Source: Thermoplasmatota archaeon
GTDB lineage: Archaea > Thermoplasmatota > E2 > UBA202 > DSCA01
DNA length: 38,272 bases
Assembly (NCBI GenBank): GCA_049975285.1
Contig: JBNGDQ010000001.1
Span: 1-38,272, forward strand
Reading direction: 5' to 3'
Position numbers and translations under genes: made by a program. The notes beneath the pieces were generated by a model. It was given only the letters and a program-made list of their open reading frames with translations. It made no database searches and was not told the DNA's origin. Every line of letters starts with the position of its first letter. Positions within the stretch are counted from its first letter, which is position 1. This document shows positions 1,623 to 38,272 of this stretch, one piece after another.

Positions 1623-1661
1623 GATTCCACCGGGCGTAGTGAATTGGTAAAACAGATGTGC

Positions 1662-1715
1662 TTTTAAAACATTTGCTCTCGCGCAGGAGCCGCCATACAC
1701 AAAAAGCGTTATATA
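1662..1715. promoter_or_regulatory. Divergent promoter region with two TATA-like boxes (TTTTAAAA 1662-1669 for the minus-strand surface protein; TTATATA 1709-1715 for the plus-strand rSAM gene)
   Basis: A/T-rich octamers sit in an otherwise GC-rich spacer. The 1709-1715 box is about 27 nt upstream of ATG 1739 (leaderless geometry). The 1662-1669 box is about 40-47 nt from ATG 1622, which leaves room for the SD-like motif. Confidence 0.4.
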
Positions 1716-1738
1716 GCCCCCCGGATTTTGCCCACACG

Positions 1739-5139: not shown

Positions 5140-6696
5140 ATGAAAACACTGTTCATATGCGCCCTGCTGGCGGCCGTCATCGGACTGGCGCCGCTGGGAG
5201 GCGTTTCCCTGTATGAGGATGAAACGGCTGCGTTTACTACGACGACGGCTACTGCGGACGATGGCGACCTTGACCCATTGAGCGACATCGAGGTGACCGT
5301 CACCATTGAACAGATACGGTCACTGGTAGCGGATGACGTGGCGCCGGTGACGATTGATAAGATCGACCGGTTGAGCGACCCTGACTTTTATGTCAAGGTG
5401 TACATCAACGGGGAGGAGTTCGTCAGCCCCGTCTGGAAGAATCAGCGATATGTCTACGAGGAATGGTCGGCCACGGCGGACGTCCCGGACGATGAGGAGT
5501 TCGTGGACATCGTGATTCAGCTCTGGGATAAAAATCCCGGCCTGGACCGGCTGTGCGACCTGAGCACCAACGAGGAGATGTATCCCTACAGTTATACCGT
5601 CAACCTGACCTACAGCCTGAAAACCGGTCACTGGTATGGAGATGACTACATCTACAACGAAGAGGAATGGTGGGAGGGACCCGACGAGAGCGGCTACGGC
5701 CGTTTGAATGGCTGCGATGACAACAGCCAGTATCAGCATGACCGGGACTGTGAGCTCTGGTTCGATATCAGCCAGAGCGACCCGGATGGTGACGGCATCC
5801 CCTATTGGACGGAGCAAAACGTGTACGGCACAGATCCCGAGGTGGACAACACGGGCGAGGATGCCGACGGTGACGGCGTACCCATCGAATGGGAGCACAA
5901 ATGGGGTCATACCTTCGAGTGGGACTGGTGGGACGACGAAGTTGAGCACGTCTGGGTCTATGACCCCTTCGTGGCGGAGAATCACTCTGAACTGGATCCC
6001 GATGAGGACGGGCTGACCAACGTCGAGGAATACCTGACCTCGCAGTGGGGCTCCGATCCCTTCCGGGATGACCTGTTCATCGAGCTCGACCAGATGAAGG
6101 CCGGCAGTGACGGCCAGCAGGCCAGCATCCTCACGGAGGGGGCACAGGAACGGCTGCGGACCGCGTACGACAAGCACAACATCGTCTACCATCTCGACGA
6201 CGGCTGCATGGGCGGCGGCGAGATGATACCCTTCGATTTGGAAACCGGGGGACGGGAGCTCCGGGAGGATTACTATCAGGACTACTTTTTGCACGACGGC
6301 GAGAACGAATGGCGGCAGGGTGTCTTCCACTACGGCGTAGTGGTATGGGACGCCGGCTTCAACGGCTACGCGATACGGCGGGACATGTGGCAGATATCCG
6401 CCAAATATATCGAGGAGAAAACCCGGCAGTTGTTCTTCGTCGACGAGGACATCGTCTACGCCAGCGTCTACATGCATGAGACGGGGCACTCCCTCGCCAT
6501 CTACAATCCCGGCGTGGATAACCATAATGCGATGTATCCTTGGCAGCCTGAATACTGGAAATACCGGCCCTACCGGAGCTGCATGAATTACGGATACACG
6601 TATACCTTCGTCGACTACTCGGATGGCTCCCGCGGGATGAACGACTTCGATGACTGGAGCGACCTCGACCTCACCTATTTCGACGACTACCGATAA
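5140..6696 (+). CDS. Secreted acidic protein with thrombospondin-type-3-like Ca-binding repeats and an HExxH zinc-metalloprotease-like motif
   Basis: Signal peptide: MKTLFICALLAAVIGLAPLGG. An N-terminal C2-like beta-sandwich region includes DIEVTVTIEQ...FYVKVYINGEEF...IQLWDKN. DxDxDG repeats are DPDGDGIPYWTE, DADGDGVPIEWE and DPDEDGLTNVEE. The HETGH motif is encoded at 6475-6489. Confidence 0.75.
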   Translation: MKTLFICALLAAVIGLAPLGGVSLYEDETAAFTTTTATADDGDLDPLSDIEVTVTIEQIRSLVADDVAPVTIDKIDRLSDPDFYVKVYINGEEFVSPVWKNQRYVYEEWSATADVPDDEEFVDIVIQLWDKNPGLDRLCDLSTNEEMYPYSYTVNLTYSLKTGHWYGDDYIYNEEEWWEGPDESGYGRLNGCDDNSQYQHDRDCELWFDISQSDPDGDGIPYWTEQNVYGTDPEVDNTGEDADGDGVPIEWEHKWGHTFEWDWWDDEVEHVWVYDPFVAENHSELDPDEDGLTNVEEYLTSQWGSDPFRDDLFIELDQMKAGSDGQQASILTEGAQERLRTAYDKHNIVYHLDDGCMGGGEMIPFDLETGGRELREDYYQDYFLHDGENEWRQGVFHYGVVVWDAGFNGYAIRRDMWQISAKYIEEKTRQLFFVDEDIVYASVYMHETGHSLAIYNPGVDNHNAMYPWQPEYWKYRPYRSCMNYGYTYTFVDYSDGSRGMNDFDDWSDLDLTYFDDYR

Positions 6697-17885: not shown

Positions 17886-17960
17886 GGGCTCGTAGCCTAG
17901 CCAGGATTGGGCGGCAGCCTTCGGAGCTGCAGACCGTGGGTTCAAATCCCACCGAGCCCG
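17886..17960 (+). tRNA. tRNA-Arg (anticodon UCG)
   Basis: Hand-folded cloverleaf. Acceptor stem GGGCTCG/CGAGCCC, D stem GCCT/GGGC, and anticodon stem GCAGC/GCTGC with loop CT-TCG-GA. The T arm is GTGGG-TTCAAAT-CCCAC and the discriminator is G. No CCA is encoded. Confidence 0.9.
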
Positions 17961-18213
17961 CTCACCCGCAACAGCGCAAAAATAGAACCGTTATTTGTAA
18001 AGTAATATTTAAAAATGGTATTAAATTTTGTGCCTATCGATTTCTAGCCCTATTTTTATAAGCTTTTTGAGCGGTTGCACACTAGGGCATTTGCCATACA
18101 CCAAGCAAATGTTACAGAGTAAAACCACGGTACACGTGCCTCAGCGTTTGCTCAATAGGACTGAGGTACAAAGCATGGCTTTTAATCATTGCTTCCTGCC
18201 GCTTTCCTTCCTC

Positions 18214-19890
18214 CTAGAAGTCGTATACCTGCTGGTAGACGGGGTGCTTCACGATCTCATCCTTATGCTCGCGGAACTGTTGGACGCGCTGCTTGGCCTG
18301 CTTGCTGTCCTCCATGAGCTGTTCGGCGCGGTCTCCAGTGGCCTTATGCTTTTCCAGGTAGGCATCACGGTAGATGGAGGGATAGACGTTGTAGGTGCAG
18401 AACGGGATGATGCGGTCTCCAGTGGCGTAGTGGATGCTGCAGCGCTGGACGCGGTTGACGTCGTAGTTGTAGTAGTCCTGGAAGTGCATCATGCCCAGAA
18501 ACAGGAAATTATAATGGAAGGTGCGCAGGCTGTCGTAGCTGCCCTCCCCGAAGATGTTCTCCAGCATGTCCGAGAGCAGCTCGCCGTTCGGCAATTCATC
18601 CTGGATGATATAGTCGGTGAGTTTCTTCGCCAGGGCCTTGTTGATGCCGCGGTAGCGCACCGCATCGCGGATCAGGCTGACGCCGGTGGCGACTTTCTTC
18701 CAGCGGCTCGTCGTCATGTCATTGACGTCCTGGATGAAGCGGTCAACGTCGATGAAATCCGTGATCGGATACAGCTTCATGGCCTCCCGGTCGACGTAGA
18801 CGTAGGTGGCGATACCGCATTTCTCGTTGTTGTAGAAGTGGACGTCATAATGGGCGCGTTTGCCGATAATGTCCGCCAGCGACGACACCGTGGACACGGG
18901 ATACCAGGCCTCCATGCCGAAGCCGAATCGCTGCCTGAGCTGCTCCACGATGTCGCTCTGAACGACGCGGAGTTTCTCCCGGTCACCTTTTTTGATGAAG
19001 CCGACCATGGATATCGGCTGAAAGTTGACGGCCTTGACGCCCTTGTCCATGTTGTGCATGGCAAACCTGACGATGTCCGGTGTTTCCTTGAGATTCAACT
19101 GGCTGACCGTGGGCACCAGCACGGTGCTCTTGATACCTCCGTCGATGTAGGCCTGCAACGCGAACGGCGTCTCATAATGATTCTTGGGGTCACTGGCTGA
19201 ATCCGGGCTGACCCCGTCGAACGAGGTATAGATGGTCTTCAAGCCGGCATCCCGCCATCGCTTCACTCGCTCGACGGCTCTCTCGGGATCCTCATAATAA
19301 TCGATGCCCACCGAGATAGAGTTCGAGTTCAACTGGACATGCGGCGACCCCAGCTCGACGGCTCCAGCGATGATCTCCGCCAGGTCATCCCGCATGGCGG
19401 GCTCCCCACCGGTTATCTGTATCGGGGGCACGTAGCCGTTGAAGCGCTCCGCAGTCTGAATGCCCGCCAGAATCTCATCGATGGATGGCTCATACACGAA
19501 GCCGGCTTTTTCCTCATAAAAGAAGCAGTACCAGCAGCGAAGGTCGCATCTGTTTGTTACCGCAACGTTCAACAATGCCGTGCTGTTCTTGTGCTGGCTA
19601 CAGAGCCCGCAGTTCATCATGTCCTGCGTGTGCTCGATCTCCGTCTGGATGTCTGCTTTCCGGTCCACGGGCGGTGGATACTGTTTGACTTTCTGCCAGT
19701 ACTCCAGGCTGCCGATGCGCTCCCGGGTGCCGTTCTCCTTGAGCAGGTACACCTGCCCGTCTTTTGCTACATAGGCGGCGGGAATCGTGACCGGTATGCC
19801 CCGGGATTCCATTGCCTCCTCGTCGACGCTGCGCGTGGTCTCCAGCACCTCGTATCCCTCCTCCCGGGCAGTTGTTTCAAGGGAACCCAT
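18214..19890 (-). CDS. Large radical SAM protein, COG1964-like; probable tetraether lipid synthase (Tes / GDGT-MAS) homolog
   Basis: The product is 558 aa. The radical-SAM motif is VTNRCDLRCWYCFF, with an extra CGLC pair just upstream. A Cys-bearing C-terminal region reads MMHFQDYYNYDVNRVQRCSIHYATGDRIIPFCTYN. The family resemblance is from memory. The gene is divergent from the GGPP synthase gene. Confidence 0.6.
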   Translation of the reverse strand: MGSLETTAREEGYEVLETTRSVDEEAMESRGIPVTIPAAYVAKDGQVYLLKENGTRERIGSLEYWQKVKQYPPPVDRKADIQTEIEHTQDMMNCGLCSQHKNSTALLNVAVTNRCDLRCWYCFFYEEKAGFVYEPSIDEILAGIQTAERFNGYVPPIQITGGEPAMRDDLAEIIAGAVELGSPHVQLNSNSISVGIDYYEDPERAVERVKRWRDAGLKTIYTSFDGVSPDSASDPKNHYETPFALQAYIDGGIKSTVLVPTVSQLNLKETPDIVRFAMHNMDKGVKAVNFQPISMVGFIKKGDREKLRVVQSDIVEQLRQRFGFGMEAWYPVSTVSSLADIIGKRAHYDVHFYNNEKCGIATYVYVDREAMKLYPITDFIDVDRFIQDVNDMTTSRWKKVATGVSLIRDAVRYRGINKALAKKLTDYIIQDELPNGELLSDMLENIFGEGSYDSLRTFHYNFLFLGMMHFQDYYNYDVNRVQRCSIHYATGDRIIPFCTYNVYPSIYRDAYLEKHKATGDRAEQLMEDSKQAKQRVQQFREHKDEIVKHPVYQQVYDF

Positions 19891-19913
19891 AGTGGATGTG
19901 CCAACTCACGAGA

Positions 19914-19925
19914 TTATTTAAATTT
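19914..19925 (-). promoter_or_regulatory. TATA-like box for the Tes-like gene
   Basis: The minus-strand AAATTTAAATAA is centred about 28 nt upstream of ATG 19890 (leaderless geometry). Confidence 0.4.
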
Positions 19926-20038
19926 TTCTTGTTTGACGGCGCCGCTACAGGAAGAAAATGCCGCATCGGGTGGTCATGGAGCCACCCTGCAGCCAGGCAG
20001 GGATGGATGACAAAACGCTTTAAACTGTTTGGATTCGG

Positions 20039-20047
20039 TTTATAAAA
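20039..20047 (+). promoter_or_regulatory. TATA-like box (TTTATAAAA) for the GGPP synthase operon
   Basis: It lies about 35 nt upstream of ATG 20079 and about 80 nt upstream of the alternative ATG 20127. Confidence 0.4.
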
Positions 20048-20078
20048 CCGTTGAAGCGGGGTAACAATTATTACGTCA

Positions 20079-21104
20079 ATGCCACGGGCGTTAGGTTCAT
20101 ATATAGGATGTTGTTTAGCCCTAACAATGTCCCTCAGTCACGTGCTTACATTTCAGGAATTCGTCGCCCAGATGCAGGACGAAGTCCGCAACAAGATAGA
20201 CCAGGAGGTGACGGATGAGGATATGCGCTACGCCATCGAGGGCGGCAAACTCCTCCGCCCCGTCATGCTCATTCTTTCCTTCAAGGCATGCTCGAACGGG
20301 CAGCACGACCGTTTGTATCAGAAGGCGCTGGAGAGCGCCGTGGGCATCGAACTGGCGCATTCGGCATCTCTGCTCCATGACGACATTATGGATGATGACG
20401 CCGTGCGGCGGGGGAAATCAGCCCTGCACGTCAAAAAAGGCGTAGGCAATGCTATTCTTACTGGGCATCGGATGATTAGCCAGGCGTTCCGCATCTCCGT
20501 GGACCACGGCCTGCAGAATGCACGTATCTTTCTCGATACCTGGGATGACACCCTGGTGGGGCAGCTGCGCGACATCGACCTCAACGCCCACCTGGAGCAG
20601 ATCTTCGAGGAGGAAAACTCTACTGAGCTGCTGATGCAGGAGTACATCCGGGTCATCGAGATGAAGACCGCGTCATTGTTCGCGACTGCCTGCCGCGCCG
20701 GGGCCATCGAGGCGCAGGCCTCTGACGAGGTTCGCTCAACCATGGCCGAATACGGCCGCAACGTCGGGCTGGCCTACCAGATAGCGGACGACATGGTGGA
20801 CATCGCCCAGGGCAAGATGGAGGAGGGCATCATCATGCCCCTACTGAAGGCCTTCGGGACCGACGTCGACCAGCGGACCATCGAGCTGCTGGAGAAAGGC
20901 AAGCTGTCCATCGAGGAGGAACTCGAAAAGAAGGGCACCAGCCTGGAAGAGGTCTACGAGCAGGGCATCACCCGCTACGTCAAGCGCTCGCAGGACATCG
21001 CTGACTCTCCGGCTATCCCGGATAGTTCCTACAAGGCGCTGCTGCGCGAGGCACCGGTGTACATCACCAACAAAATGACGGAAAAAATCGGCGTCACGGT
21101 ATAA
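20079..21104 (+). CDS. idsA: Polyprenyl diphosphate synthase, most likely geranylgeranyl diphosphate synthase
   Basis: The first aspartate-rich motif is LLHDDIMDDD and the second is QIADDMVD. A trans-prenyltransferase fold is expected. An alternative start at 20127 (MSLSHV...) is possible. Confidence 0.88.
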   Translation: MPRALGSYIGCCLALTMSLSHVLTFQEFVAQMQDEVRNKIDQEVTDEDMRYAIEGGKLLRPVMLILSFKACSNGQHDRLYQKALESAVGIELAHSASLLHDDIMDDDAVRRGKSALHVKKGVGNAILTGHRMISQAFRISVDHGLQNARIFLDTWDDTLVGQLRDIDLNAHLEQIFEEENSTELLMQEYIRVIEMKTASLFATACRAGAIEAQASDEVRSTMAEYGRNVGLAYQIADDMVDIAQGKMEEGIIMPLLKAFGTDVDQRTIELLEKGKLSIEEELEKKGTSLEEVYEQGITRYVKRSQDIADSPAIPDSSYKALLREAPVYITNKMTEKIGVTV

Positions 21105-21785
21105 ATGGCCATCGAGCAGAAAGGGATTACGTCTCCCTTTACCGTCGCCACTTCGATTATCACGGGGGGATTGTTTCCCCTGCTGGGTGCTTTTTTTGCC
21201 TATAGCACCGGGGCTATCCCCACGTTGGAGGACATGGCCTGGCCGGCGCTGGCGTTGACCGTCATCGGCGGCTTTCTGGCACATTACCTCCTGTCGCATA
21301 CCATCCATGACCTGTTCCACTATGAGATAGAGGAGCGGGCCACGTTCAGCCGGCAAACTTTAAAAATCATGCTCATCGTGACGGTCGTCGTCCTGCTCGG
21401 CATCGCCATCTATCTCACCCTGCAGGCCGGCTGGCCCGTGATGGTGTTCGCCGTCATCGGCGCACTCGTTTCCATGTACGCGGAGGGATTGTTCCACAGC
21501 GAAGTCCAGATGGCCATCGGGGCCATGTTCCTGGTCATCGGGTCCTTCTACGTCCAGGTCGGCAGCCGGTATCACGGCCTGGATGCCTTCACCGACATCA
21601 ATGGCATGATTTGGCTGAAGGTCGCGATGCTGTCCCTCTTCGCGTTTTTCTCCCAGTACGGCTGGTTGCTCTTCTACCGGCTGGACGACTACGACTGGAG
21701 TCCCCGGGTCCGCAACCAGAGCATCCTGCTCACCAAGCTCGGGCTCCCCTTCCTCATCCTGGCGCTCGCGCTGCCCGTGACGTAA
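21105..21785 (+). CDS. Polytopic membrane protein (about 7 TM) of unknown function, abutting GGPP synthase
   Basis: Its ATG immediately follows the idsA TAA (TAAATG). Loops carry a His/acidic motif, AHYLLSHTIHDLFHYEIEE, and a second LFHSE motif. No family was recognised. Confidence 0.7.
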   Translation: MAIEQKGITSPFTVATSIITGGLFPLLGAFFAYSTGAIPTLEDMAWPALALTVIGGFLAHYLLSHTIHDLFHYEIEERATFSRQTLKIMLIVTVVVLLGIAIYLTLQAGWPVMVFAVIGALVSMYAEGLFHSEVQMAIGAMFLVIGSFYVQVGSRYHGLDAFTDINGMIWLKVAMLSLFAFFSQYGWLLFYRLDDYDWSPRVRNQSILLTKLGLPFLILALALPVT

Positions 21786-21845
21786 CGACAGGGCACTGAT
21801 ACACGCCGAGACGGAAACCATATATAGCCAGAACCGTTGAATGGA

Positions 21846-22955
21846 ATGATGCGCGCACTCATGGCTCTCGTGGTCGCCATCGTCATGGTGGCGGGCAGCG
21901 TCGGGCTCACCACTGAGATGCAGCACCCCACGGGCGGAGCAGGGCAGCCGTCATCGCTTGCGCCCACTACGGCTGCGGGAGGAGACGACGGCGTGGATGA
22001 TGCAGCTCATTTCAAGTACTATCAGAACGACAGCGACATCTCCCGGTGGTATGAATGGTGGTATCTGAACGTGAAGACGGAGAACGGTCACAGCCTGCTC
22101 ATCGAGTTTTTTACCTTTGGGGATCTCAACAATCTCTTCACCTCGGCAGTCGGCGTGGTCATGTTGTTCATGCACGAGGACGGCTCCACCTATAAGAGCT
22201 TGAAGAGCTACCCGGGGATTCCGTATTCCTTGAGCTATGAGACCTGCGATGTCTCCATAGCGGGAGACCGATTCGTCCAGCGGGACGACGGCAGCTACGA
22301 CGTCTCCTATCACAATTATGTCCAGCAGGTTGACCTAGACCTGCATGTCATGGGCCTGATGGCACCCGTCGTCGGGCGGCACAGCCAGTTGAACGACCGA
22401 GAGTGGATGGCCTGGAATGCAGCCGTGCCAGCCGGTGAGGTGCACGGCAACCTGGCGTTCCGGGAGAACGGCAAAATGGAGTACTACGACATGACCGGTG
22501 TTGGTTATCACGACCATAACTGGGGCATCGCCCGGAAGCTTCCGCTCCAGTGGGACTGGGGCGAGTTCACCGACCCCTCGATGCCGGCCACCTTCATCTA
22601 CGGAGCCGCCAAAGTCGGGGATGGTCCCTACCAGCACGGGGGCATCAACGTGGCCACCACTACCCGGGATCGATATATCCCCATCCAGAACGTTACCATT
22701 GAATACCTTGAATGGGAGGACGTCGCGGGCGTATCCAAGCCCACGATGCTGCGTATCACCGGTGAAAGCAGCGCCATGTCCGTCCAGGCGACGGTGCAGA
22801 TCCACCGTTATTACCTCGTCGCGGGCACTGGATGGTTCGGGATGCCCTACCTGGTCGGCTCCCTCAACGCCGACATATACGTCAACGGCCACCACTACGA
22901 GATGCGGAACGTCATCGGCTTCTATGAGCACCACTATTTCTCTATCTTCAGTTAA
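21846..22955 (+). CDS. Exported AttH/CrtC-like (carotenoid 1,2-hydratase fold, lipocalin-like) protein
   Basis: The ORF-track start at 21837 is TTG. ATG 21846 lies about 23 nt downstream of CATATATAG (21819-21827). The N-terminal signal-anchor is MMRALMALVVAIVMVAGSVGL. The segment SRWYEWWYLNVKTENGHSLLIEFFTFG matches the 'EWWY...G' hallmark of the AttH/CrtC family. Confidence 0.65.
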   Translation: MMRALMALVVAIVMVAGSVGLTTEMQHPTGGAGQPSSLAPTTAAGGDDGVDDAAHFKYYQNDSDISRWYEWWYLNVKTENGHSLLIEFFTFGDLNNLFTSAVGVVMLFMHEDGSTYKSLKSYPGIPYSLSYETCDVSIAGDRFVQRDDGSYDVSYHNYVQQVDLDLHVMGLMAPVVGRHSQLNDREWMAWNAAVPAGEVHGNLAFRENGKMEYYDMTGVGYHDHNWGIARKLPLQWDWGEFTDPSMPATFIYGAAKVGDGPYQHGGINVATTTRDRYIPIQNVTIEYLEWEDVAGVSKPTMLRITGESSAMSVQATVQIHRYYLVAGTGWFGMPYLVGSLNADIYVNGHHYEMRNVIGFYEHHYFSIFS

Positions 22956-26866: not shown

Positions 26867-28039
26867 TTAATAAAGCTTGCCGCTCCCTGATATTGGCGGA
26901 AGATCATCAACGGCTATGCCAGCCGTCCAGGCCACGCCCCGCCGGACGATCCACCAGTTGTAATCCTCCGGCAGCTCCTCCCGACCCGTCCAGCCGAACA
27001 GCCCCAGACCCAGCATGCGGTTCCGCTCCGTGTCCCGCTCGACGAGGCGGCCACCCCGCCAGACGGGATGCTCGGGATGATTACCGAACAAGACGACGCG
27101 TCCCTCCCCATAACGGCAGGAAATGGCTGCGGGCTTCCCGGCGAGATGCGTCTCAATGACCCGGTCATCCATGTCCCACCAGTCAAGTGGCTGCCATGGA
27201 TCGGGACTGTAGCGCCAGGCGTGCAGCATCGTCGATGCGTTGCCGTGCGGACCGGACATGTTTTCATCTGGATACCAGGCCAGCACCGAGACGTCGCCCG
27301 TGGGCAGCAGGGCAGGGCCACCGACCCACCGAATGATGCGACTGTCACCGTCATAACCGGCAAAGATGGGATGACTCCGGTTGACGGGGCACTGCTGGCA
27401 GAGGCCGCTGCCCTCGATGCTGAGGTTGTACCATATGTAGGCTGACTGCCCGATGCGCTCCGGTACACCGGCGAGGGACAGCGCGATGGGGTCGCCGATA
27501 TCCTGGTATGCCTGCACCGACGCGATGCCGAGCGCGGAGGCATTCATGAACCATTCCCATGCAGTCATCGATGTGTGGCCACGCTGCTCTGGCGGTACGA
27601 GGCACTCGGCGGCCATGTTTGCGCCGCCGCAGGCTCCGAAGTAGCCGCCGCCGTTTGCTATGAATTCACGGATGGCCTCCTTCCATGAGGCTCCGACGGC
27701 GTGAGGGCGACGGTATTCTTTGCCGATGCCGGGAATGATGAGGACGTCGAAGCCATCAAGCCCGCCGGCGGTTATCTGCGGGTCGGTGAGCCACGTGACT
27801 TCGAAGCAATAGCTGTTGGTGCCTTCACTCCACGTGTAGCCGTCGAGGAGGGCGTGCATCTCGGGTGGCGAGGTAAACGAGGGAATGAATGAGTCGAGGA
27901 GAGCGACGGTGATGGTCTGCTGCTCTATGGCCGTCGTGTCCGGCGTGGCAGGACGGGCATCATCGTGATGCTCTAGGGCTGATGGAACGACTGGAAGCAG
28001 GAGAAACAGGGCAAAAAAGAGGACAGGCAGCCATTTCAT
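26867..28039 (-). CDS. Secreted protein with class-I glutamine-amidotransferase-like (BPL_N/ThuA-like) domain
   Basis: The preferred start is ATG 28039 (MKWLPVLFFALFLLLPVVPSALE, a signal peptide); the ORF-track extension to 28114 is A/T-rich promoter sequence. The segment FDVLIIPGIG...FIANGGGYFGACGGANMA resembles the GATase1-like nucleophile-elbow region. Confidence 0.55.
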   Translation of the reverse strand: MKWLPVLFFALFLLLPVVPSALEHHDDARPATPDTTAIEQQTITVALLDSFIPSFTSPPEMHALLDGYTWSEGTNSYCFEVTWLTDPQITAGGLDGFDVLIIPGIGKEYRRPHAVGASWKEAIREFIANGGGYFGACGGANMAAECLVPPEQRGHTSMTAWEWFMNASALGIASVQAYQDIGDPIALSLAGVPERIGQSAYIWYNLSIEGSGLCQQCPVNRSHPIFAGYDGDSRIIRWVGGPALLPTGDVSVLAWYPDENMSGPHGNASTMLHAWRYSPDPWQPLDWWDMDDRVIETHLAGKPAAISCRYGEGRVVLFGNHPEHPVWRGGRLVERDTERNRMLGLGLFGWTGREELPEDYNWWIVRRGVAWTAGIAVDDLPPISGSGKLY

Positions 28040-28155
28040 GGATGTAATATCTTCTATTCTAATATATAATTTTAGAAAAGTTTTAAAATAAACATTCATT
28101 ATTATAGCGTTCAAAATATGAGCGTCAAAAATGTGGATGTTGCCGGGAGGATAGC

Positions 28156-29547
28156 ATGAACATCCTGCTCACCATGCCGTCTCCACAGCGCTACCAAGAC
28201 TGGTACGACCGACTCCTCGAACGCATATGTATACTCTGGCCGCCCCTCACGCTCAGACAGCTCGAAGCCATAACCCCGGACAAACACACGGTTGACGTCG
28301 TTCACAGCCATGAAAAAATAAAAGAAAATGAGGAATACGACGTCGTCGGCATAAGCTTCTTTACCGCCACCGCCCCACAGGCATATGCCCTGGCTGACAC
28401 GTACAGAGAAAAAGGAAGCATCGTCATACTCGGGGGCTACCATGCATCCGCACTGCCCAGCGAAGCAAAACAGCACAGCGATGCCGTCGTCATTGGAGAA
28501 GCCGAACATCTCTGGCCCCGGGTTCTGCATGACATCGAACACGACACGCTCCAGCCCTTCTATCACATGCGACGCCCTACACCGCCACGTGCCATCCCCG
28601 GAGCCACACAGACCAGCATCCCGGGAATGATCAAAATCGGCGGGGCCGAAGCCACCCGGGGATGTCCCTACGGCTGCGAGTTCTGCGCCCTCTCCCACAG
28701 CCCGTTCGGACAGTGCTACCGGAAAAAACCAGTCGAGCAGGTCATCGCAGAGATAACATCCATCCCACACAGATACTTCGTCTTCTACGACGGTTCGCTC
28801 ACCGTGGACCCGACCTACACGAAGGCCCTGTTCCGCCGGCTCCGCGACCTCAACAAAAAATTTGCCGCCTTCGGCCATGCCAGCATGGTCGACGACGAAG
28901 AGCTGCTCCGGCTGGCCCGGGATGCGGGATGCATCGCCTGGGACATCGGCTTCGAATCCATCTACCAGCATACCATCGACCGGCTCAATAAGCGCTCCAA
29001 TGTGGTACAGAGATATGCCGACGTGGTGGAAAAACTCCATGACTATGGCATGAACGTGATAGGGTCGTTTGCCTTCGGCTTCGACGAGCACACCCCGGGC
29101 GTCTTCGACAAAACACTGGAGGCTGTCCACCAGTGGGACATCGACTCCCTGGGCATCACGATTCTCACGCCGCTGCCGGGAACCCGGCTCTACGACCGGT
29201 TGCAAAAAGAAAACCGGATACTGACCAGAGACTGGTCGAAATATGACCTCTACCACGTCGTATTCCAGCCGAAACACATGTCCCCCCGGGAACTCTACGA
29301 CGGAGTGTCCAACTTCGTCAAAGCATTTTACGCACCGGACAACCTCCTGCAGCGCATGATGAGAAATATAGCCCATACGGGCCTCCTCTCCTCGCTGGGC
29401 ATCAACTACCACCTCATCAGCTCCCGGGTCATCTACAAATCAGCCTTCGGACAGCGCTACATCCACAACCATCACCATCAACAATATCCAATATCGTCAC
29501 CAGCAACATCTCTAAAGAGCAGTGCCAGCCCAGCCAGGCAAAAATAG
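28156..29547 (+). CDS. Cobalamin(B12)-binding-domain radical SAM enzyme (class B rSAM), paralog B
   Basis: GGGAGG (28145-28150) precedes the ATG. The B12-domain region reads DVVGISFFTATAPQAYALADTYREKGSIVILGGYHAS...AVVIGEAE. The rSAM motif is GCPYGCEFC. Blocks shared with paralog A are AGCIAW, FGFD..TP, ILTP.PGT, DWSKY and QPK.M.P.EL. Confidence 0.88.
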   Translation: MNILLTMPSPQRYQDWYDRLLERICILWPPLTLRQLEAITPDKHTVDVVHSHEKIKENEEYDVVGISFFTATAPQAYALADTYREKGSIVILGGYHASALPSEAKQHSDAVVIGEAEHLWPRVLHDIEHDTLQPFYHMRRPTPPRAIPGATQTSIPGMIKIGGAEATRGCPYGCEFCALSHSPFGQCYRKKPVEQVIAEITSIPHRYFVFYDGSLTVDPTYTKALFRRLRDLNKKFAAFGHASMVDDEELLRLARDAGCIAWDIGFESIYQHTIDRLNKRSNVVQRYADVVEKLHDYGMNVIGSFAFGFDEHTPGVFDKTLEAVHQWDIDSLGITILTPLPGTRLYDRLQKENRILTRDWSKYDLYHVVFQPKHMSPRELYDGVSNFVKAFYAPDNLLQRMMRNIAHTGLLSSLGINYHLISSRVIYKSAFGQRYIHNHHHQQYPISSPATSLKSSASPARQK

Positions 29548-29585
29548 CAATTATTAAAAGTTTGCAAGGCATATATGCATGTTTC

Positions 29586-30653
29586 ATGGACGTGGTCATC
29601 GTTGGTGCCGGACCCGCCGGCCTCATCACTGGTCTTCAGCTTCTGGAGCGAGGGGAATCACCCGTCATCTGCGAAAAACAGCCCGGGATAGTGACCACGG
29701 TCTGCGCTGAGGCCTGTGACAGCAACTCGCTGAAACAGCTCCCGTTTGACTCTACCCCCTACATCGCCCATGAAGTCGAAGGCGCCTACGCTGTCTTCCC
29801 CGGCGACAGCCACTTCGAGATCCCCAAACCAGGAGTCGTCCTCGACCGGCAGCGGTGGCTGCAGGGCCTCGCTACAGCTTTCGAGCAGCGAGGCGGCGTC
29901 CTCCGCACCGGGACCACTGTGACCTCGACCACCGACAGCGGCGTCATGCTGCAGGATGGAGAACACCTGCAGGCAGACATCGTCGTGGGGGCCGACGGAC
30001 CCTACTCGCGTCTCAGAAAACAGATGGAGATCCCCCAAGAGCTCATATGTGGCGTCCAGTACCGCGTGGCCTGCGACACCAGTGACATGGACCACCTTCG
30101 CTTCTATTTCGACAAGCGCTTCAGCGAGCATTATGGCTGGCTGTTCCCCCGGGGTGAGGTAGTCAACGTGGGCCTCTCCGGTAAATGCAGGCAGCTCGAC
30201 CGGCTCCTGGCTCATCTCGGCTTCGATGCCGCGGCAGTAACGGAGAAGATGGCCGGCGCTATCCCGGTCGGCGGGGTACCGAAACGACTCGTGGATGGCA
30301 ATCGAGTGCTCATCGGGGATGCTGCCTCCATGACGAATCCGCTCTCCGGCGGTGGACTGACACCCATCGCGCATGCATCGGCGCTGCTCGCCCGGTACAT
30401 CGATGACCTTAAGCGATATGAGCAGGCAGTCCATGCGCATCCAATGGCGGACAAGAGCATCGTGCGGGCAAAGAACGTATTGCTCCGCCTGAGTGTCGAG
30501 GACCTGCGGAAGATGGGAGACCTGGTCGACGGGAAAACCATGTACGAGCTGGGGCACCGTGACCGGATTGCAGCCTTGCGGTATCCCCTGCTGGCTCCCT
30601 CCTTCAAAGCGATGGCGAAGGGGGTAGCGCTCTCCCTTGAATGGGGATGGTAG
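29586..30653 (+). CDS. Geranylgeranyl reductase family flavoprotein (digeranylgeranylglycerophospholipid reductase-like)
   Basis: The ORF-track start at 29562 is TTG. ATG 29586 gives MDVVIVGAGPAGL, which contains the FAD GxGxxG motif. LIGDAASMTNPLSGGGL is the conserved GGR motif. A TATA-like TTATTAAAA lies at 29551-29559. Confidence 0.85.
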   Translation: MDVVIVGAGPAGLITGLQLLERGESPVICEKQPGIVTTVCAEACDSNSLKQLPFDSTPYIAHEVEGAYAVFPGDSHFEIPKPGVVLDRQRWLQGLATAFEQRGGVLRTGTTVTSTTDSGVMLQDGEHLQADIVVGADGPYSRLRKQMEIPQELICGVQYRVACDTSDMDHLRFYFDKRFSEHYGWLFPRGEVVNVGLSGKCRQLDRLLAHLGFDAAAVTEKMAGAIPVGGVPKRLVDGNRVLIGDAASMTNPLSGGGLTPIAHASALLARYIDDLKRYEQAVHAHPMADKSIVRAKNVLLRLSVEDLRKMGDLVDGKTMYELGHRDRIAALRYPLLAPSFKAMAKGVALSLEWGW

Positions 30654-32498: not shown

Positions 32499-33002
32499 TT
32501 ATTTTTCTTCGTCGACCCGCTGTATGTTCATGCCCTTGTACTCGAGCCGGGCGGATCGCTTGACGATGGATTTCATCTGGATGGAACTGAAATCGAATTT
32601 ACGCTCTGCTTCACGGCCGAGCTCGCCGTCGCCGACGAAGTCGTAGATCTGCTGCTCGATGTCATGGAACGTCTCCTCGTCCATCAGGGCAATGGAGAAC
32701 ACGTCCTGGAGCATGTCAACCGACGATATGACCTTTATATGGAAGGATGAATAAAAAGCATGATATTGTTTCTTCGCGGTGCCGCCGTCCATCTCCCAGC
32801 GGGTCTCCACGAGCTTGACTTTTTCAAAAAACGTGAGGGCCTCCTTTCCCGCCTGGCCGTATTCCTCCTCGACTTCTTCCATGATGGTCCATTCCTCGCA
32901 GACCTTCTCAAACACATGCCGCTTGACGTCGGAGTCAAAGGCTCGCATCAGCCACACCAGATCCGTAATATCGTTGATCAGCTTCGCCTGGCTCATAGAC
33001 AT
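32499..33002 (-). CDS. Hypothetical acidic cytoplasmic protein (167 aa), possibly wHTH-like
   Basis: The ORF is clean with ATG starts (MSMSQ...). It lies immediately upstream of the kinase on the same strand. No confident family was recognised. Confidence 0.5.
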   Translation of the reverse strand: MSMSQAKLINDITDLVWLMRAFDSDVKRHVFEKVCEEWTIMEEVEEEYGQAGKEALTFFEKVKLVETRWEMDGGTAKKQYHAFYSSFHIKVISSVDMLQDVFSIALMDEETFHDIEQQIYDFVGDGELGREAERKFDFSSIQMKSIVKRSARLEYKGMNIQRVDEEK

Positions 33003-33068
33003 TTATGGCACATCCGTTTAAATTTCTATGGGTCAAAAATCATTAATAGCAGGAACAAATACGGGTGT

Positions 33069-33977
33069 ATGGGAGAAGGCTACGGCTACGGCAAAGTCAT
33101 TTTATTCAATGAACACTTCGTCGTCTACGACGTCCCGGCTATCGCGTCAGCCATCGACAAGACAACCACGGCACGCGTCCGGCCCAGTCCATCCGGGCTG
33201 GTGCTCCACGACGACCGCATGGCCACCCCGCGATACAAGGAAAACAAGAAAGACCAGCAGCAGGACTCACTCCGCTACATCTTCCAGGCCATGGACGTCG
33301 ACCCCAACCTGGAGATATGGCTCCAGGGCGACCTCAAGGCAGCCAGCGGCATCGGAGCCAGCGCGGCCAGCTGCGCCGCGATAGCGAGAGCCATCAACGA
33401 TGAATACGACATGGGCCTCAGCATGGAGGACATCAATCGCGTTGCCTATGAGGGAGAACGCGGCTACCATGGCACCCCGTCGGGCCTCGACAACACCGTC
33501 GCCACGTTCGGCGGCCTGGTCTGGTTCCAGTCCGGCGACATGGAACGGCTCACCATCGATGAACCCGTCGACATCGTGATGGGCAACACGGGCATCGTCG
33601 CGGATACCAAGCAGGCCGTGGCCGGCGTCCGCAAACGCAGAGAACAGCAGCCCGATAAATATGAAAAGGTTTTCAAGCAGGCAGAGGAACTGGTACATGA
33701 GGCGCGCGAGGCACTGCTCGCCAGCGACTGGCCAAAAGTCGGCCGGTATATGAACCAAAACCATGAGCTGCTCCAGCAGATCGAGGTGTCATCGCCGGAG
33801 CTGAACGAGCTCGTCGACCTGGCCCGGGAGCAGGGCGCCCTCGGCGCCAAGATGACCGGCGGAGGCCTCGGCGGGTTCATGGTGGCATTGACGCCCGGCG
33901 GGGAGCTACAGGAAACCGTCGCAGCGGCGATAGAAGACGCGGGTTACGAGGCACTCCGCACCCGGGTGGGCATCTAA
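33069..33977 (+). CDS. mvk: Mevalonate kinase
   Basis: The true start is ATG 33069 (MGEGYGYGKVILFNEHFVVYDVPAIA); the ORF-track start at 32760 overlaps the opposite-strand gene. The GHMP motif is KAASGIGASAASCAA and the C-terminal motif is GAKMTGGGLGGF. Confidence 0.92.
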   Translation: MGEGYGYGKVILFNEHFVVYDVPAIASAIDKTTTARVRPSPSGLVLHDDRMATPRYKENKKDQQQDSLRYIFQAMDVDPNLEIWLQGDLKAASGIGASAASCAAIARAINDEYDMGLSMEDINRVAYEGERGYHGTPSGLDNTVATFGGLVWFQSGDMERLTIDEPVDIVMGNTGIVADTKQAVAGVRKRREQQPDKYEKVFKQAEELVHEAREALLASDWPKVGRYMNQNHELLQQIEVSSPELNELVDLAREQGALGAKMTGGGLGGFMVALTPGGELQETVAAAIEDAGYEALRTRVGI

Positions 33978-34010: not shown

Positions 34011-34020
34011 CATCCCGTCT

Positions 34021-34105
34021 GCGAGGGTAGCCAAGCCAGGCCAACGGCGACAGACTCAAGATCTGTTCCAGCAGTGGTTCGTCGGTTCGAATCCGGCCCC
34101 TCGCA
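34021..34105 (+). tRNA. tRNA-Leu (anticodon CAA)
   Basis: Hand-folded structure. Acceptor stem GCGAGGG/CCCTCGC, and anticodon stem ACAGA/TCTGT with loop CT-CAA-GA. A long variable arm (TCCAGCAGTGGTTC) is typical of tRNA-Leu. The T arm is GTCGG-TTCGAAT-CCGGC and the discriminator is A. No CCA is encoded, and a T7 run follows. Confidence 0.9.
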
Positions 34106-34112
34106 TTTTTTT
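34106..34112 (+). terminator. Oligo-T (T7) immediately after tRNA-Leu
   Basis: TTTTTTT directly follows the discriminator base. Confidence 0.5.
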
Positions 34113-34154
34113 AATATTAAACATTTATATACTACTTCGATGTTATAAGGGGTA

Positions 34155-34688
34155 ATGACTTACGAGAAAAAACCTCGGATTACCAAGCGGACTATTCCGG
34201 TGTATCTCCCGACCATTGAAATGAAAGAGCGGTGGAAAACCAAAGCGGAAGAAGTCGGGTTGTCGGCATCAAAGTTTGTTATCGAATACGTTGAAAACTC
34301 ACTGATGCAGGAAGAGAATAAGGATATATATAGCTCGCGCGCCGAACTAATGGAACAAATAAAAGACCTGAAAGATGAAAATACGGAGTTACGGAAGCGT
34401 AACAAAATGCTTGATACTCTGATTGGTAGAATGGACGAAGATATGAAACGATACCGTACTAAACCATTCATGCAAGATGAGTTTTATGGCATCAGGGAAT
34501 ATGAGGAGCAGCTCATAAATATATTCAAGGAACGGGGGAAGGTTAGAAAGGAAGAAATATATGAGCTGCTAGATATCGACCCCATGAAAAACAGTGACAT
34601 CGTGAAGGGCATAAACCGACAGTTAGAGATGCTGGAACGGTATGGCATGATAGAGGACAAGGGAAAGGTGTGGGTATGGAACGGCTAA
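34155..34688 (+). CDS. Ribbon-helix-helix (CopG/Arc-like) + coiled-coil + C-terminal winged-helix protein; candidate element regulator or excision factor
   Basis: AAGGGG precedes ATG 34155. The N-terminal RHH pattern is KRTIPVYLPTIEMKERWKTKAEEVGLSASKFVIEYVENSL. A heptad-rich middle region reads ELMEQIKDLKDENTELRKRNKMLDTL. The C-terminus is EEIYELLDIDPMKNSDIVKGINRQLEMLERYGMIEDKGKVWVW. Its 3' end overlaps the integrase start. Confidence 0.7.
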   Translation: MTYEKKPRITKRTIPVYLPTIEMKERWKTKAEEVGLSASKFVIEYVENSLMQEENKDIYSSRAELMEQIKDLKDENTELRKRNKMLDTLIGRMDEDMKRYRTKPFMQDEFYGIREYEEQLINIFKERGKVRKEEIYELLDIDPMKNSDIVKGINRQLEMLERYGMIEDKGKVWVWNG

Positions 34689-35617
34689 CCGATACTGAAC
34701 TACTGAGAGAGTTTGTAGATGATTGCAAGGTTAGGGGCCTGACCCATCATACCATCCGATGCTACCGAGGTCAAATACGGATATTTCGGGATTTTTTGAA
34801 TGAGCATAACCGGCATTTCTACGACGTTGACAAGAATATTTTGAAAGAGTTCATCCGATATCTCCGTAACCAGCGTAAGGTCAGCCAGAAGCGTATAGAA
34901 AATTATTTTTCCAGTTTGTCGAGCTTCTATGACTTCCTAACCTACGAAGACATCGTGGATAAAAATATAGTGTTGCAGGTTAGAAAACGGTATCTGCGTC
35001 GCTACAAAAAAGATAACAATGGTGGTAGCAGTCGAAAGCTGATAAGCATCGATGAAATGGCGAACTTCATAAACATGATATCTGATACTAGGGACAAAGC
35101 TGTTGCATTGCTTCTGGCAAAAACGGGCATCAGGAGAGGGGAGCTCATAAGCATAGATGTCGATGATATTGACTGGCAGGACATGAGCATCCGGCTGAAA
35201 CCTAAGGCAAAACGGTCAAACCTAACAGTGTTTTTCGACGACGAAACCACCGCTATCCTATGGCGGTGGGTATCCAAACGTGAAACCGTAGCAAACGAGG
35301 ACTGCCGTGCATTGTTTGTATCATATCAGTATGGCAAGCGGCTGAAACGAAGCGGCGTATATCATCCCTTTATATCTTGGGCTGAAAGGGCGGGACTCCA
35401 TAATTCCGAATCAGCCAGACTAGAGGACCACTTTACCCCCCATTGTTGCCGTCATTGGTTTACCACACATCTACGGCGGGCGGGGATGCCCAGGGAATAC
35501 ATCAAGGAACTACGCGGAGATGCCAGGACCGAAGCAATGGATATCTACCATCACATCGACCGTGAAGAACTGAAAAAATCCTATTTGGTACATATTCCAC
35601 AGTTGGGGGTTGAATAA
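34676..35617 (+). CDS. Tyrosine recombinase / phage-type integrase (XerC/D-like)
   Basis: The N-terminal SAM-like core-binding domain includes GLTHHTIRCYRGQIRIFRDFL. Catalytic signatures are AKTGIRRGEL (Arg), HCCRHWFTTHL (HxxR) and MDIYHH (Tyr). The ORF-track start at 34670 is GTG; the ATG is at 34676. Confidence 0.92.
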   Translation: MERLTDTELLREFVDDCKVRGLTHHTIRCYRGQIRIFRDFLNEHNRHFYDVDKNILKEFIRYLRNQRKVSQKRIENYFSSLSSFYDFLTYEDIVDKNIVLQVRKRYLRRYKKDNNGGSSRKLISIDEMANFINMISDTRDKAVALLLAKTGIRRGELISIDVDDIDWQDMSIRLKPKAKRSNLTVFFDDETTAILWRWVSKRETVANEDCRALFVSYQYGKRLKRSGVYHPFISWAERAGLHNSESARLEDHFTPHCCRHWFTTHLRRAGMPREYIKELRGDARTEAMDIYHHIDREELKKSYLVHIPQLGVE

Positions 35618-35862
35618 TGAATCAATATAGAGGTTTAAAAAGATGAGTGATTCAAGTAGTATAGATGCCAATATGATGTAAAGCGGAAAAAAGATATGAA
35701 CAGCCGAAAAAAAATGCGAAGAGGCAATCCTGCAGCAAACCTTGAGAAGTTATAGAACTGCTGACAGGCGCTTAGAACTCTGTGTAAAGGGACAGAATGA
35801 ACGCTTGGACTATCTTGCCTGAATGGCAATACTATGGCATAATACAATATCGAAAGGATTAG

Positions 35863-35967
35863 GAAAAACAAGAGGGCATCGACATCTATCATCACATTGG
35901 TCACGAAAAACTCAGTAACAAATACGTGGCCTGCATACCCCGCTTGGGCTCGAATAACATACGCTGA
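35863..35967 (+). pseudogene. Relic of the 3' end of a second, diverged tyrosine-integrase gene
   Basis: The frame opens after TAG 35860-35862 and reads EKQEGIDIYHHIGHEKLSNKYVACIPRLGSNNIR*. This aligns with the C-terminus of the intact integrase (EAMDIYHHIDREELKKSYLVHIPQLGVE*), including the catalytic Tyr context. No upstream integrase sequence remains. Confidence 0.65.
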
Positions 35968-36130
35968 TATATCTCTGCTGACACCAATGTTGGCAACCAG
36001 TCAGTGCAAAGAAGAAGGGAACACAATGTGGAGAACCAGGGGGGGGGGTAAATCCTTAATATTGGATCGCATTATAGAGCCATAGGAGCGGATACATGAT
36101 TTTGATGGGATATCGGAACCGGAGGACATC

Positions 36131-36346
36131 ATGCACTCTATACATCTACCCATCTGGCATGAAGCCGTTGGCCACTTGGTGGAGGTCTCCCTGCAACACG
36201 GATACATCCATGCGACGCTCGCCAAAGTTGGCACCATCATTATGCCCTTCAACGAGGACCATTATCAGCGACTCCAGACGTTGACAGGGAAACGGATCGC
36301 TATCCTACGAATAGATACCGGCTATGTAGTAGCAGAAGCAGTCTGA
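36131..36346 (+). CDS. Hypothetical small protein (71 aa) on the island
   Basis: GGAGG (36121-36125) lies 5 nt upstream of ATG 36131. No family was recognised. Confidence 0.35.
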   Translation: MHSIHLPIWHEAVGHLVEVSLQHGYIHATLAKVGTIIMPFNEDHYQRLQTLTGKRIAILRIDTGYVVAEAV

Positions 36347-36738
36347 CACCCCCTAAGGGTCACAAAACCTCGCCCGAAACACCACGACGGGGGCAGCACT
36401 ACGATAGAGCAAGGATGGCTGCATATTGATTTAGACGTAAGACTATCACGGGGTGGAGAGGGGGCATGTGGAGGAAAACTCCAATAACTCCTGCCTATAG
36501 ATGGCAGAAGCACCAACATTTCTGCCCCCCTGACCAATTATAATATTGCAAAGGATATTTAATATTTTTTTTATCAGTGATGTATTTTTGTATGCTGTAT
36601 TTGGTAATCCTGTAAAAAGCCCTTGAAACCAACTACGAATTGTGTTTGATAGCATTTTTAGATATAATGGTTTTAAATGGGTATAACATTGATATAATGC
36701 TGGTGGAGAGCTACCCCAAAAATAAATGGAGAGATAAA

Positions 36739-38262: not shown

Positions 38263-38272
38263 GACCTGAAAA

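Follow-up and report, generated by a model that had tools for sequence, protein, structure and literature searches.

The locus described here raises the question of what an exported protein of the AttH/CrtC type might do beside genes for archaeal membrane isoprenoids. It occupies positions 18214-22955 of the window, by which is meant the whole stretch of 38,272 nt that was analysed (contig JBNGDQ010000001.1, assembly GCA_049975285.1, from an uncultured Thermoplasmatota archaeon), and contains a radical S-adenosylmethionine (rSAM) gene opposite three co-oriented genes, those of a prenyl diphosphate synthase, a seven-transmembrane (7-TM) protein and a fourth, AttH-like protein that is called X here. 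A preliminary description had drawn the four open reading frames, and all of them are real, with exactly the coordinates that it gave:

18214-19890, minus strand: divergent rSAM of the Tes/GDGT-MAS family (558 aa), matching NCBIfam NF045702 and PDB 7TOL
19891-20078, between the divergent genes: intergenic spacer (188 nt, GC 0.46) with one TATA-like box per direction
20079-21104, plus strand: trans-polyprenyl diphosphate synthase (341 aa; 325 aa from ATG 20127), matching Pfam PF00348
21105-21785, plus strand: conserved 7-TM membrane protein (226 aa), from an AlphaFold2 (AF2) model and a homologue alignment
21837-22955, plus strand: AttH/CrtC-fold protein X, probably exported or tethered to the membrane (372 aa from TTG 21837; 368 aa from the likelier ATG 21849), from AF2 and Foldseek

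The locus is read here as a lineage-specific juxtaposition of isoprenoid-lipid genes, the core of which is the synthase gene abutting the 7-TM gene. For X itself, analogy suggests a cofactor-free isoprenoid hydratase or lyase that works on lipids of the membrane from its outer face, a reading that is put forward tentatively. The AttH-like assignment did not fail in profile and structure searches, and the gene order recurs on other contigs.

Pfam and NCBIfam scans give nothing usable for X, and its fold was assigned through a family profile and structure. Clustering at 90% identity gives 63 clusters of the family, every one from Thermoplasmatota, and members diverge down to ~31% identity. The alignment used here (A1) also holds 63 sequences, of which 57 are Thermoplasmatota family members and six are bacterial relatives. 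The AF2 model built from it, with a predicted local distance difference test score (pLDDT) of 84.7 and a predicted template-modelling score (pTM) of 0.83, starts with a hydrophobic helix at the N-terminus, continues with ~30 aa of disordered linker and ends in a body of two beta-barrels. Comparison of this model with CrtC-type folds by Foldseek, a check set beforehand, returned 27 PDB chains at E<=0.001, all of the AttH fold and with probability 1.0. The best match is AttH (2ICH; E 5e-11, template-modelling score by target, TMt, 0.69-0.71), and the others include the Diels-Alderases Fsa2, Phm7 and CghA (among them 7E5T and 6KBC), kievitone hydratase (KHS; 7A0Q, 7A0T) and a 25-phosphosteroid lyase (9FZN); after the AttH-fold chains the next match drops to E 4.8e-3 and a TM-score of 0.16. 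The A1 profile finds KHS (E 0.0018) and AttH (E 0.0032) among the PDB sequences, with the EWWY motif, a D-x-x-W-G block and W-x-W lined up, EWWY of X (residues 73-76) falling on EWWY of 2ICH. With a hidden Markov model (HMM) made from no sequences but the 57 of Thermoplasmatota, bacterial proteins in which PF07143 is present score 89-99 bits (E ~1e-26, Z=1e6). By predicted fold and transitive sequence homology, X is a member of the AttH/CrtC superfamily. The AttH/CrtC likeness proposed in the preliminary description thus stands for the fold, for EWWY and for the family-only HMM, but not for a direct match to PF07143.

The residues that are invariant in all 63 sequences are E73-W-W-Y76, Y224-H-D-H-N-W-G230, W239 and W241, and E243, K301 and E364 are nearly so. 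D226 aligns with the Asp of 'YDRQWG' in KHS and of 'LDREW' in AttH, and W239-x-W241 lies 13-15 residues past Y224-x-D226. In CrtC, Y266 and D268 are essential, D268 in the Y-x-D motif being the proposed proton donor, with W110, W283 and W285 assigned to stabilising the cation and a substrate cavity between the two barrels. Residues Y224, D226, W239, W241 and W74-75 of X would correspond to Y266, D268, W283, W285 and W110 of RgCrtC; no counterpart of CrtC His239 could be mapped on X. X resembles CrtC and KHS in its two-barrel fold and, as far as spacing and the KHS alignment indicate, in the Y-x-D / D-x-x-W-G motif with the following W-x-W and in an N-terminal Trp; the reactions of CrtC and KHS are cofactor-free, and CrtC is membrane-associated. 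It differs from both in lacking a PF07143 match, in sharing only 12-16% sequence identity with them by structure and in possessing a cleavable signal or an anchor with a linker, and carotenoid genes were not found near it. EWWY, YHDHNWG and W-x-W are also common to X and bacterial AttH/lipocalin-like proteins, although this sharing is partly built in, as the matches were retrieved via shared words. The function of these bacterial proteins is not known, those checked have no N-terminal hydrophobic signal, and only their N-terminal domain can be aligned with X by sequence.

Each of the 57 family members begins with K/R followed by 14-18 hydrophobic residues, and in the window clade (see below) a disordered linker of ~30 residues comes after the hydrophobic stretch. 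X is therefore most likely secreted or tethered outside the membrane, as the preliminary description had supposed when it called the protein exported or signal-anchored. The start codon is probably ATG 21849 rather than TTG 21837, because close homologues begin MRAL or MHAL. A TATA-like sequence, ATATATAG, lies at 21822-21829, ~20-27 nt upstream of this probable start, and the X gene may have a promoter of its own besides read-through from the 7-TM gene.

The preliminary description had seen hints of an uncharacterised hydration, binding or transport step on archaeal membrane isoprenoids; for hydration there is now a precedent. An AttH-like hydroxy-glycerol dialkyl glycerol tetraether (GDGT) synthase, Hgs (GBSed_1000338311), is described in a 2025 preprint by Garcia, Chadwick, Nayak and Welander (bioRxiv 10.1101/2025.10.20.683597). 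Its gene overlaps ted, which encodes a B12-rSAM tetraether desaturase, and co-expression of Hgs with Ted in T. kodakarensis yields hydroxylated GDGTs (OH-GDGTs) from unsaturated GDGTs (bioRxiv 10.1101/2025.10.20.683597). Homologues of Hgs occur mainly in Methanobacteriota and Bathyarchaeota (bioRxiv 10.1101/2025.10.20.683597). Like Hgs, X is archaeal, AttH-like, presumably cofactor-free and encoded beside lipid-modifying genes, and the proposed chemistry is the same, hydration of a C=C bond to a tertiary alcohol. By description it is set apart by its phylum, its genomic partners, its universal export signal and probably its sequence family. An AttH-like hydratase for archaeal lipids is thus already known, and X would be an exported variant in another phylum. 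The B12-rSAM gene nearest to X is ~5.2 kb away, past FTHFS and FTCD, and the two B12-rSAM proteins of the window (463 and 466 aa) fall under the filter of >=500 aa that the preprint set for Ted homologues. Among 176 loci examined, an AttH-like gene with an adjacent B12-rSAM gene was found in none save L006, where the two are ~430 bp apart with an opposite-strand gene between them.

In a neighbour-joining tree (without support values), the X family falls into two clades. Genome and metagenome synteny scans, which were dominated by bacterial AttH-like genes, contributed at least six and at least five X-family loci, respectively. The order rSAM, synthase, 7-TM, X, FTHFS of the window clade recurs on six other contigs (L001, L002, L003, L009, L010 and L174), across which identity of X goes down to 43%, and in the window and all six X begins 34-63 nt past the synthase/7-TM pair. 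The linkage of X to the synthase and Tes noted in the preliminary description is therefore recurrent, but it is confined to one sub-lineage. In the other clade (B), X directly follows genes for a ferredoxin (2x[4Fe-4S]) and an AOR-family oxidoreductase (AOR) in seven distinct loci (L004, L006, L008, L012, L013, L014 and L097, with X at ~8001 in most). The stop codon of AOR overlaps the start of X within ATGA at 4/4 junctions read (L004, L006, L008 and L012), and the AOR-linked loci, all of this one clade, have AORs that are 76-88% identical. The coupling of an exported, cofactor-free X to a cytoplasmic tungsten AOR is a puzzling feature of this operon. The window has no AOR gene. A third arrangement is found in assembly GCA_034660695.1, where the synthase/7-TM pair is directly followed by ferredoxin-AOR (L176, 4388-8331) on another contig than X; these proteins are 70-73% identical to those of clade B, and the AOR is the same orthologue (70-72%). 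In one clade-B genome, PcrB is divergent from the synthase/7-TM pair on a contig other than that of X, with neither X nor Tes nearby.

Two further arrangements, each seen once, place X beside prenyl-lipid genes of other kinds. In L012 (7875-12528), downstream of ferredoxin-AOR, X is followed on one strand by genes for an alpha/beta hydrolase, a canonical Tes and a geranylgeranyl reductase (GGR), and in L096 (11-2849; the contig ends just upstream) by same-strand genes for a UbiA prenyltransferase (331 aa) and a UbiE/MenG-like methyltransferase. Both lend modest independent support to a link between X and prenyl lipids. The nearest relatives of X outside the family are bacterial proteins named 'lipocalin-like' or 'predicted secreted hydrolase'. 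In the Methanobacteriota locus L040, an AttH-like gene that passes PF07143 adjoins TiaS and NOG1.

The partners of X in the window are easier to place by family than by product. The synthase matches PF00348 (E 3.8e-48) and contains a first aspartate-rich motif (FARM; DDIMD, 101-105) and a second (SARM; DDMVD, 237-241), so that its assignment as a trans-prenyl synthase is secure, whereas the label geranylgeranyl diphosphate (GGPP) synthase, used in the preliminary description, is plausible but not established. None of the NCBIfam equivalogs for product class is reached (IdsA 143 bits, cutoff 468; GGPP_syn 124 bits, cutoff 500), and neither PDB nor NCBIfam scores separate the classes. In the chain-length region, ELAHSASLLHDD, positions -5 and -4 before FARM are Ala and Ser. 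The archaeal GGPP synthases 1WY0 and 5JFQ have Tyr/Phe at -5, and this C20-limiting aromatic is absent from the window synthase; the nonaprenyl synthase 9IMQ (HLATLYHDD) has Ala there, although residues besides -5 and -4 can also set chain length and Ala/Ser is no proof of a long product. The region is identical in 6/6 synthase orthologues that adjoin a 7-TM gene. One of these orthologues is encoded divergently from the geranylgeranylglyceryl phosphate (GGGP) synthase gene PcrB, a neighbour that favours a role in membrane lipids. Translation may begin at ATG 20127, because genes called in relatives encode 319-326 aa.

The pairing of the synthase gene with the 7-TM gene is the most stable feature of the locus. 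As the preliminary description had it, the 7-TM gene encodes a polytopic membrane protein and abuts the synthase gene: at the junction, GTATAAATGGCC, the stop codon TAA of the synthase gene is directly followed by the ATG of the next gene, and the two genes likewise abut or overlap in L176 and L089. The AF2 model contains seven long helices (pLDDT 92.7). Pfam and NCBIfam scans gave no family match. Homologues number 260, and those with a named source all belong to Thermoplasmatota; identity is at least 52% across the best 120 of them, with a mean of 64% per alignment column. Exhaustive searching of 1.84 billion representative proteins with a profile yielded only 27 clusters of the family and no bridge to a named one. 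Three motifs are invariant: HxxHDxxH in loop 2-3 (H65-T-I-H68-D69-L-F-H72, that is H65, H68, D69 and H72), ExxxHxE in loop 4-5 (E127, H131 and E133) and RxDD in loop 6-7 (R192-L-D194-D195, that is R192, D194 and D195). The top structural neighbours of the model in Foldseek belong to the UbiA superfamily (digeranylgeranylglyceryl phosphate, DGGGP, synthase 7BPU/6M31, UBIAD1 and ApUbiA), with E-values that are not significant (0.14-0.43; template-modelling score by query, TMq, 0.45-0.61). PF01040 (UbiA) is reached below threshold by 5/10 distant relatives (best E 8.2e-5, 22 bits against a 34-bit cutoff) and not matched by the window protein itself, and hhalign against two UbiA proteins was not significant (probability 0.2%). 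UbiA enzymes have eight or nine helices rather than seven, and neither of their Asp-rich motifs, NDxxDxxxD and DxxxD, was found in the 7-TM protein, which has HxxHDxxH in place of the first. The polar motifs on loops 2-3 and 6-7 occupy the same positions as in UbiA enzymes, and the gene is coupled to that of a prenyl diphosphate synthase. The 7-TM protein is thus possibly a much-modified UbiA-fold enzyme, which is a lead and not a result. The sole case of a 7-TM gene without a synthase partner is L090 (2508-7970), where its neighbours are two flanking B12-rSAM genes, two NAS/SAM-methyltransferase-like genes and a gene for an AMP-binding enzyme.

The divergent rSAM had been called a probable tetraether synthase. 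Its place in the Tes family is borne out by homology across the full length: the sequence of PDB 7TOL (GDGT-MAS, MJ0619) matches residues 36-503 (E 3.7e-70), and positions 12-483 of the 486 in NCBIfam NF045702 (Tes) are covered. The NF045702 score of 424.4 bits is below the 450-bit cutoff, and the protein departs from canonical enzymes in its metal sites, as seen in an alignment (A3) of the window rSAM, three orthologues and the canonical Thermoplasmatota Tes of L012. The latter scores 684.6 bits on NF045702 and carries the Pfam zinc ribbon Zn_ribbon_HMPTM, which a Pfam scan did not find in the window rSAM. The radical SAM motif CX3CX2C (C115, C119, C122), the Cys residues of the C-terminal auxiliary cluster (C358, C484, C498) and the labile Met (M468) are kept. 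In MJ0619, the rubredoxin-like iron site is ligated by C9X2C12...C33X2H36 and the N-terminal [4Fe-4S] cluster by three Cys and a His. Of the rubredoxin ligands (CX2C...CX2H), 0/4 are present in the window rSAM and its three orthologues, and of the N-terminal cluster only C94, C97 and H100 are left, the missing third Cys falling in a 5-residue deletion. The protein also has an additional C-terminal stretch of ~50 aa, which forms an extra helix, and its identity to canonical Thermoplasmatota Tes is 36-37%. It is a member of the Tes family, of a distinct sub-type whose activity is predicted only. Tes paralogues can differ in activity: in M. acetivorans, MA_1486 makes GDGTs and MA_1114 only traces of macrocyclic archaeol. 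Assignment as Gms, the synthase of GMGT (glycerol monoalkyl glycerol tetraether), was considered and rejected, as Gms is a homologue of AhbD and not of Tes.

The order of the genes, the fold, the conserved motifs and the hydrophobic signal at the N-terminus are observed; what they suggest about topology, catalysis, substrate and a tie to the neighbouring genes can be put as follows. The 7-TM protein, possibly UbiA-fold-like, would take a prenyl diphosphate at the cytoplasmic face, and X, needing no cofactor, would act on an isoprenoid chain by carbocation chemistry on the outer side of the membrane. Asp226 of Y224-x-D226 would protonate a C=C bond, or assist elimination, at a tertiary carbon; Trp74/75 with Trp239/241 would stabilise the cation; and addition of water would give a tertiary alcohol. 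By analogy with Hgs, the likely substrate would be a residual or introduced double bond in lipids of the archaeol or GDGT type. X could work outside the cell because a hydratase needs neither cofactor nor energy.

Several observations weigh against a lipid hydratase tied to its neighbours in this way. PF07143 has no match in X at E<=1, the sole Pfam match being DA_N (E 0.019), and P0027 and P0029, two members of the family, do no better on PF07143 than E 0.02-0.04. The residue mapping onto CrtC rests on motif spacing and on the KHS and AttH alignments, not on a direct alignment with CrtC, and the AttH fold also hosts chemistry other than hydration, in the Diels-Alderases and the phosphate lyase. 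Thermoplasmatota are reported to be without Hgs at E<=1e-80 (bioRxiv 10.1101/2025.10.20.683597), so that X is at best a distant relative, and no Ted-like desaturase gene overlaps X. Synteny of X with lipid genes is restricted to one sub-lineage: clade B has ferredoxin-AOR in front of X, L094 has unrelated genes there at similar divergence, and in L175 (X at 5594-6691, GCA_034660695.1) X comes after a C25 peptidase gene and before FTHFS. In two genomes the synthase/7-TM pair and X are on separate contigs. Finally, adjacency of X and FTHFS is found in both clades and is as conserved as that of X with the synthase/7-TM pair; as no shared function is plausible for X and FTHFS, gene order here must be in large part inherited and is weak functional evidence in this lineage.

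The last point suggests an adjacency that is inherited and functionally meaningless. X would then act on or bind a hydrophobic compound unrelated to the cell's own lipids, such as an environmental terpenoid, and an ancestral block of synthase/7-TM, ferredoxin-AOR, X and FTHFS would have lost its middle in this sub-lineage. Three modules indeed occur pairwise in different genomes (synthase/7-TM with X in the window clade, synthase/7-TM with ferredoxin-AOR in L176, and ferredoxin-AOR with X in clade B), with the same AOR orthologue throughout, a pattern that fits a block decaying differently in each lineage but fits functional coupling too. X also evolves far faster than its neighbours (between L002 and the window, X is 49% identical and rSAM, synthase, 7-TM protein and FTHFS are 70-76% identical), it may be served by its own TATA-like box, and the two bacterial relatives examined (P0064 and P0067) adjoin genes of a sigma-70 factor, of major facilitator superfamily (MFS) and ATP-binding cassette (ABC) transporters, or of a TetR regulator. 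Against this, L012 and L096 independently place X beside other prenyl-lipid genes, the gap after the 7-TM gene is short and on the same strand, and membrane lipids are the substrate of the one AttH-like protein from archaea that has been tested. Inherited adjacency without function, the main rival, is regarded as somewhat unlikely, though it deserves to be taken seriously. A more far-reaching reading would join all three modules in one unrecognised Thermoplasmatota pathway, in which a membrane isoprenoid is made or remodelled and the last step, with a tertiary carbon hydrated or undergoing elimination, happens beyond the cytoplasmic membrane and gives a modified archaeol or GDGT, with the rubredoxin-less Tes as the tail-coupling enzyme; this is an improbable reading.

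A functional partnership of X with ferredoxin-AOR would give the AOR an aldehyde-linked product or substrate (for example a hemiacetal from hydration of an enol or vinyl ether), or would make AOR/ferredoxin a source of reductant for the same lipid pathway. The seven operons with their ATGA overlaps speak for it, as does the same gene pair directly behind synthase/7-TM in L176, and in M. acetivorans a ferredoxin gene lies between the GGR gene and Tes (MA_1486). But AOR is a cytoplasmic cofactor enzyme while all members of the X family have an export signal, those linked to AOR among them, the window keeps X though it has no AOR, and the linked loci, all of one clade, amount to one evolutionary observation, which leaves the partnership quite improbable. 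Still less credence is given to X as a lipocalin-like protein without catalytic activity, one that would bind or carry lipids on the surface of the cell, for instance to scavenge or transfer them or to organise the envelope. Such a role would suit a fold built of lipocalin-like barrels, the many bacterial relatives named only 'lipocalin-like domain-containing protein' and the tethering of X by an anchor and a flexible linker, whereas the invariant polar cluster (E73, H225, D226, H227, N228), which persists down to ~31% identity and includes the Asp aligned with that of KHS and, by motif spacing, with the proposed proton donor D268 of CrtC, looks more like an active site than a binding pocket. 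A cofactor-free hydratase or lyase for membrane isoprenoids remains the tentative preference.

Hydroxylated and unsaturated GDGTs serve as environmental proxies whose producing organisms are only partly known. If X does hydrate membrane isoprenoids, Thermoplasmatota of sediments and hydrothermal sites would be candidate sources of such lipids, and the reaction would be the first modification of an archaeal core lipid at the outer membrane face; a single pathway of all three modules would moreover imply hydroxylated or otherwise modified archaeol or GDGT in a phylum said to lack Hgs. Should the adjacency be merely inherited, the locus would be a caution that inherited gene order can mimic an operon. 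The by-products of the analysis, namely the synthase/7-TM pair, the rubredoxin-less Tes variant and the ferredoxin-AOR-X operon, are perhaps as useful as X. Few uncharacterised membrane proteins of the phylum are as conserved as the 7-TM protein, and with its gene directly next to that of a housekeeping prenyl diphosphate synthase it is a concrete candidate for some lipid step that is still missing or unknown. The rubredoxin-less Tes offers a test of which metal sites a tetraether synthase really needs.

The spacer between the divergent genes had been described as 189 nt long, A/T-rich and furnished with one TATA-like box per direction. The boxes are there; the length is 188 nt, and A/T-richness is moderate only (GC 0.46 against 0.59 in the host part of the window). 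On the minus strand TTTAAATA lies at 19922->19915, ~32 nt ahead of the rSAM ATG, and on the plus strand TTTATAAA at 20039-20046, 40 nt ahead of ATG 20079. TTTAWA hexamers are concentrated in the spacer, which holds 6/30 of those on both strands of the first 34 kb (~0.17 expected), and the boxes are putative promoter elements. An Rfam scan of the window found two tRNAs only, and no RNA element in the locus.

Besides the locus, the window contains two genes for B12-rSAM proteins, one of the geranylgeranyl-reductase family and one for mevalonate kinase, a genomic context that counts in favour of the preferred reading of X. The B12-rSAM gene at 28156-29547 (plus strand, 463 aa) is followed 15 nt on by the geranylgeranyl-reductase-family gene (29562-30653), which scores 150.8 bits on TIGR02032, just below the 158.8-bit cutoff. 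Its paralogue at 1658-3058 encodes 466 aa with 42% identity. Both B12-rSAM proteins are below every NCBIfam cutoff; they may modify lipids in the manner of a methylase, desaturase or ring synthase. In L174 and L002, orthologues are found ~5 kb away from X, and in L090 they stand on either side of the 7-TM gene. A minus-strand ORF at 28111-29412 was rejected as a gene, as it matches no family and shadows the plus-strand B12-rSAM gene. The most A/T-rich stretch of the host region, 28001-28110 (GC 0.22 over 100 nt, with several TATA-like runs), has the B12-rSAM gene (plus strand, 28156) on one side and, on the other, a BPL_N-like gene that points away from it (minus strand, 26867-28114). The mevalonate kinase gene (32760-33977) scores 240.9 bits on TIGR00549, above the cutoff, and encodes an N-terminal extension of ~110 aa; with it, isoprenoid genes are still more concentrated in this region.

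The two tRNA genes mark other features of the window. tRNA-Arg(tcg), at 17886-17961, lies between a UDP-glucose dehydrogenase gene and the 3' end of the Tes-like gene and is followed by an A/T-rich stretch (17961-18100, GC 0.27-0.33). Beyond tRNA-Leu(caa), at 34020-34106, GC falls from ~0.59 to 0.43-0.47, and a tyrosine-recombinase (phage integrase) gene is found at 34670-35617; positions 34020-38272 are probably a mobile element or provirus integrated at the tRNA gene.

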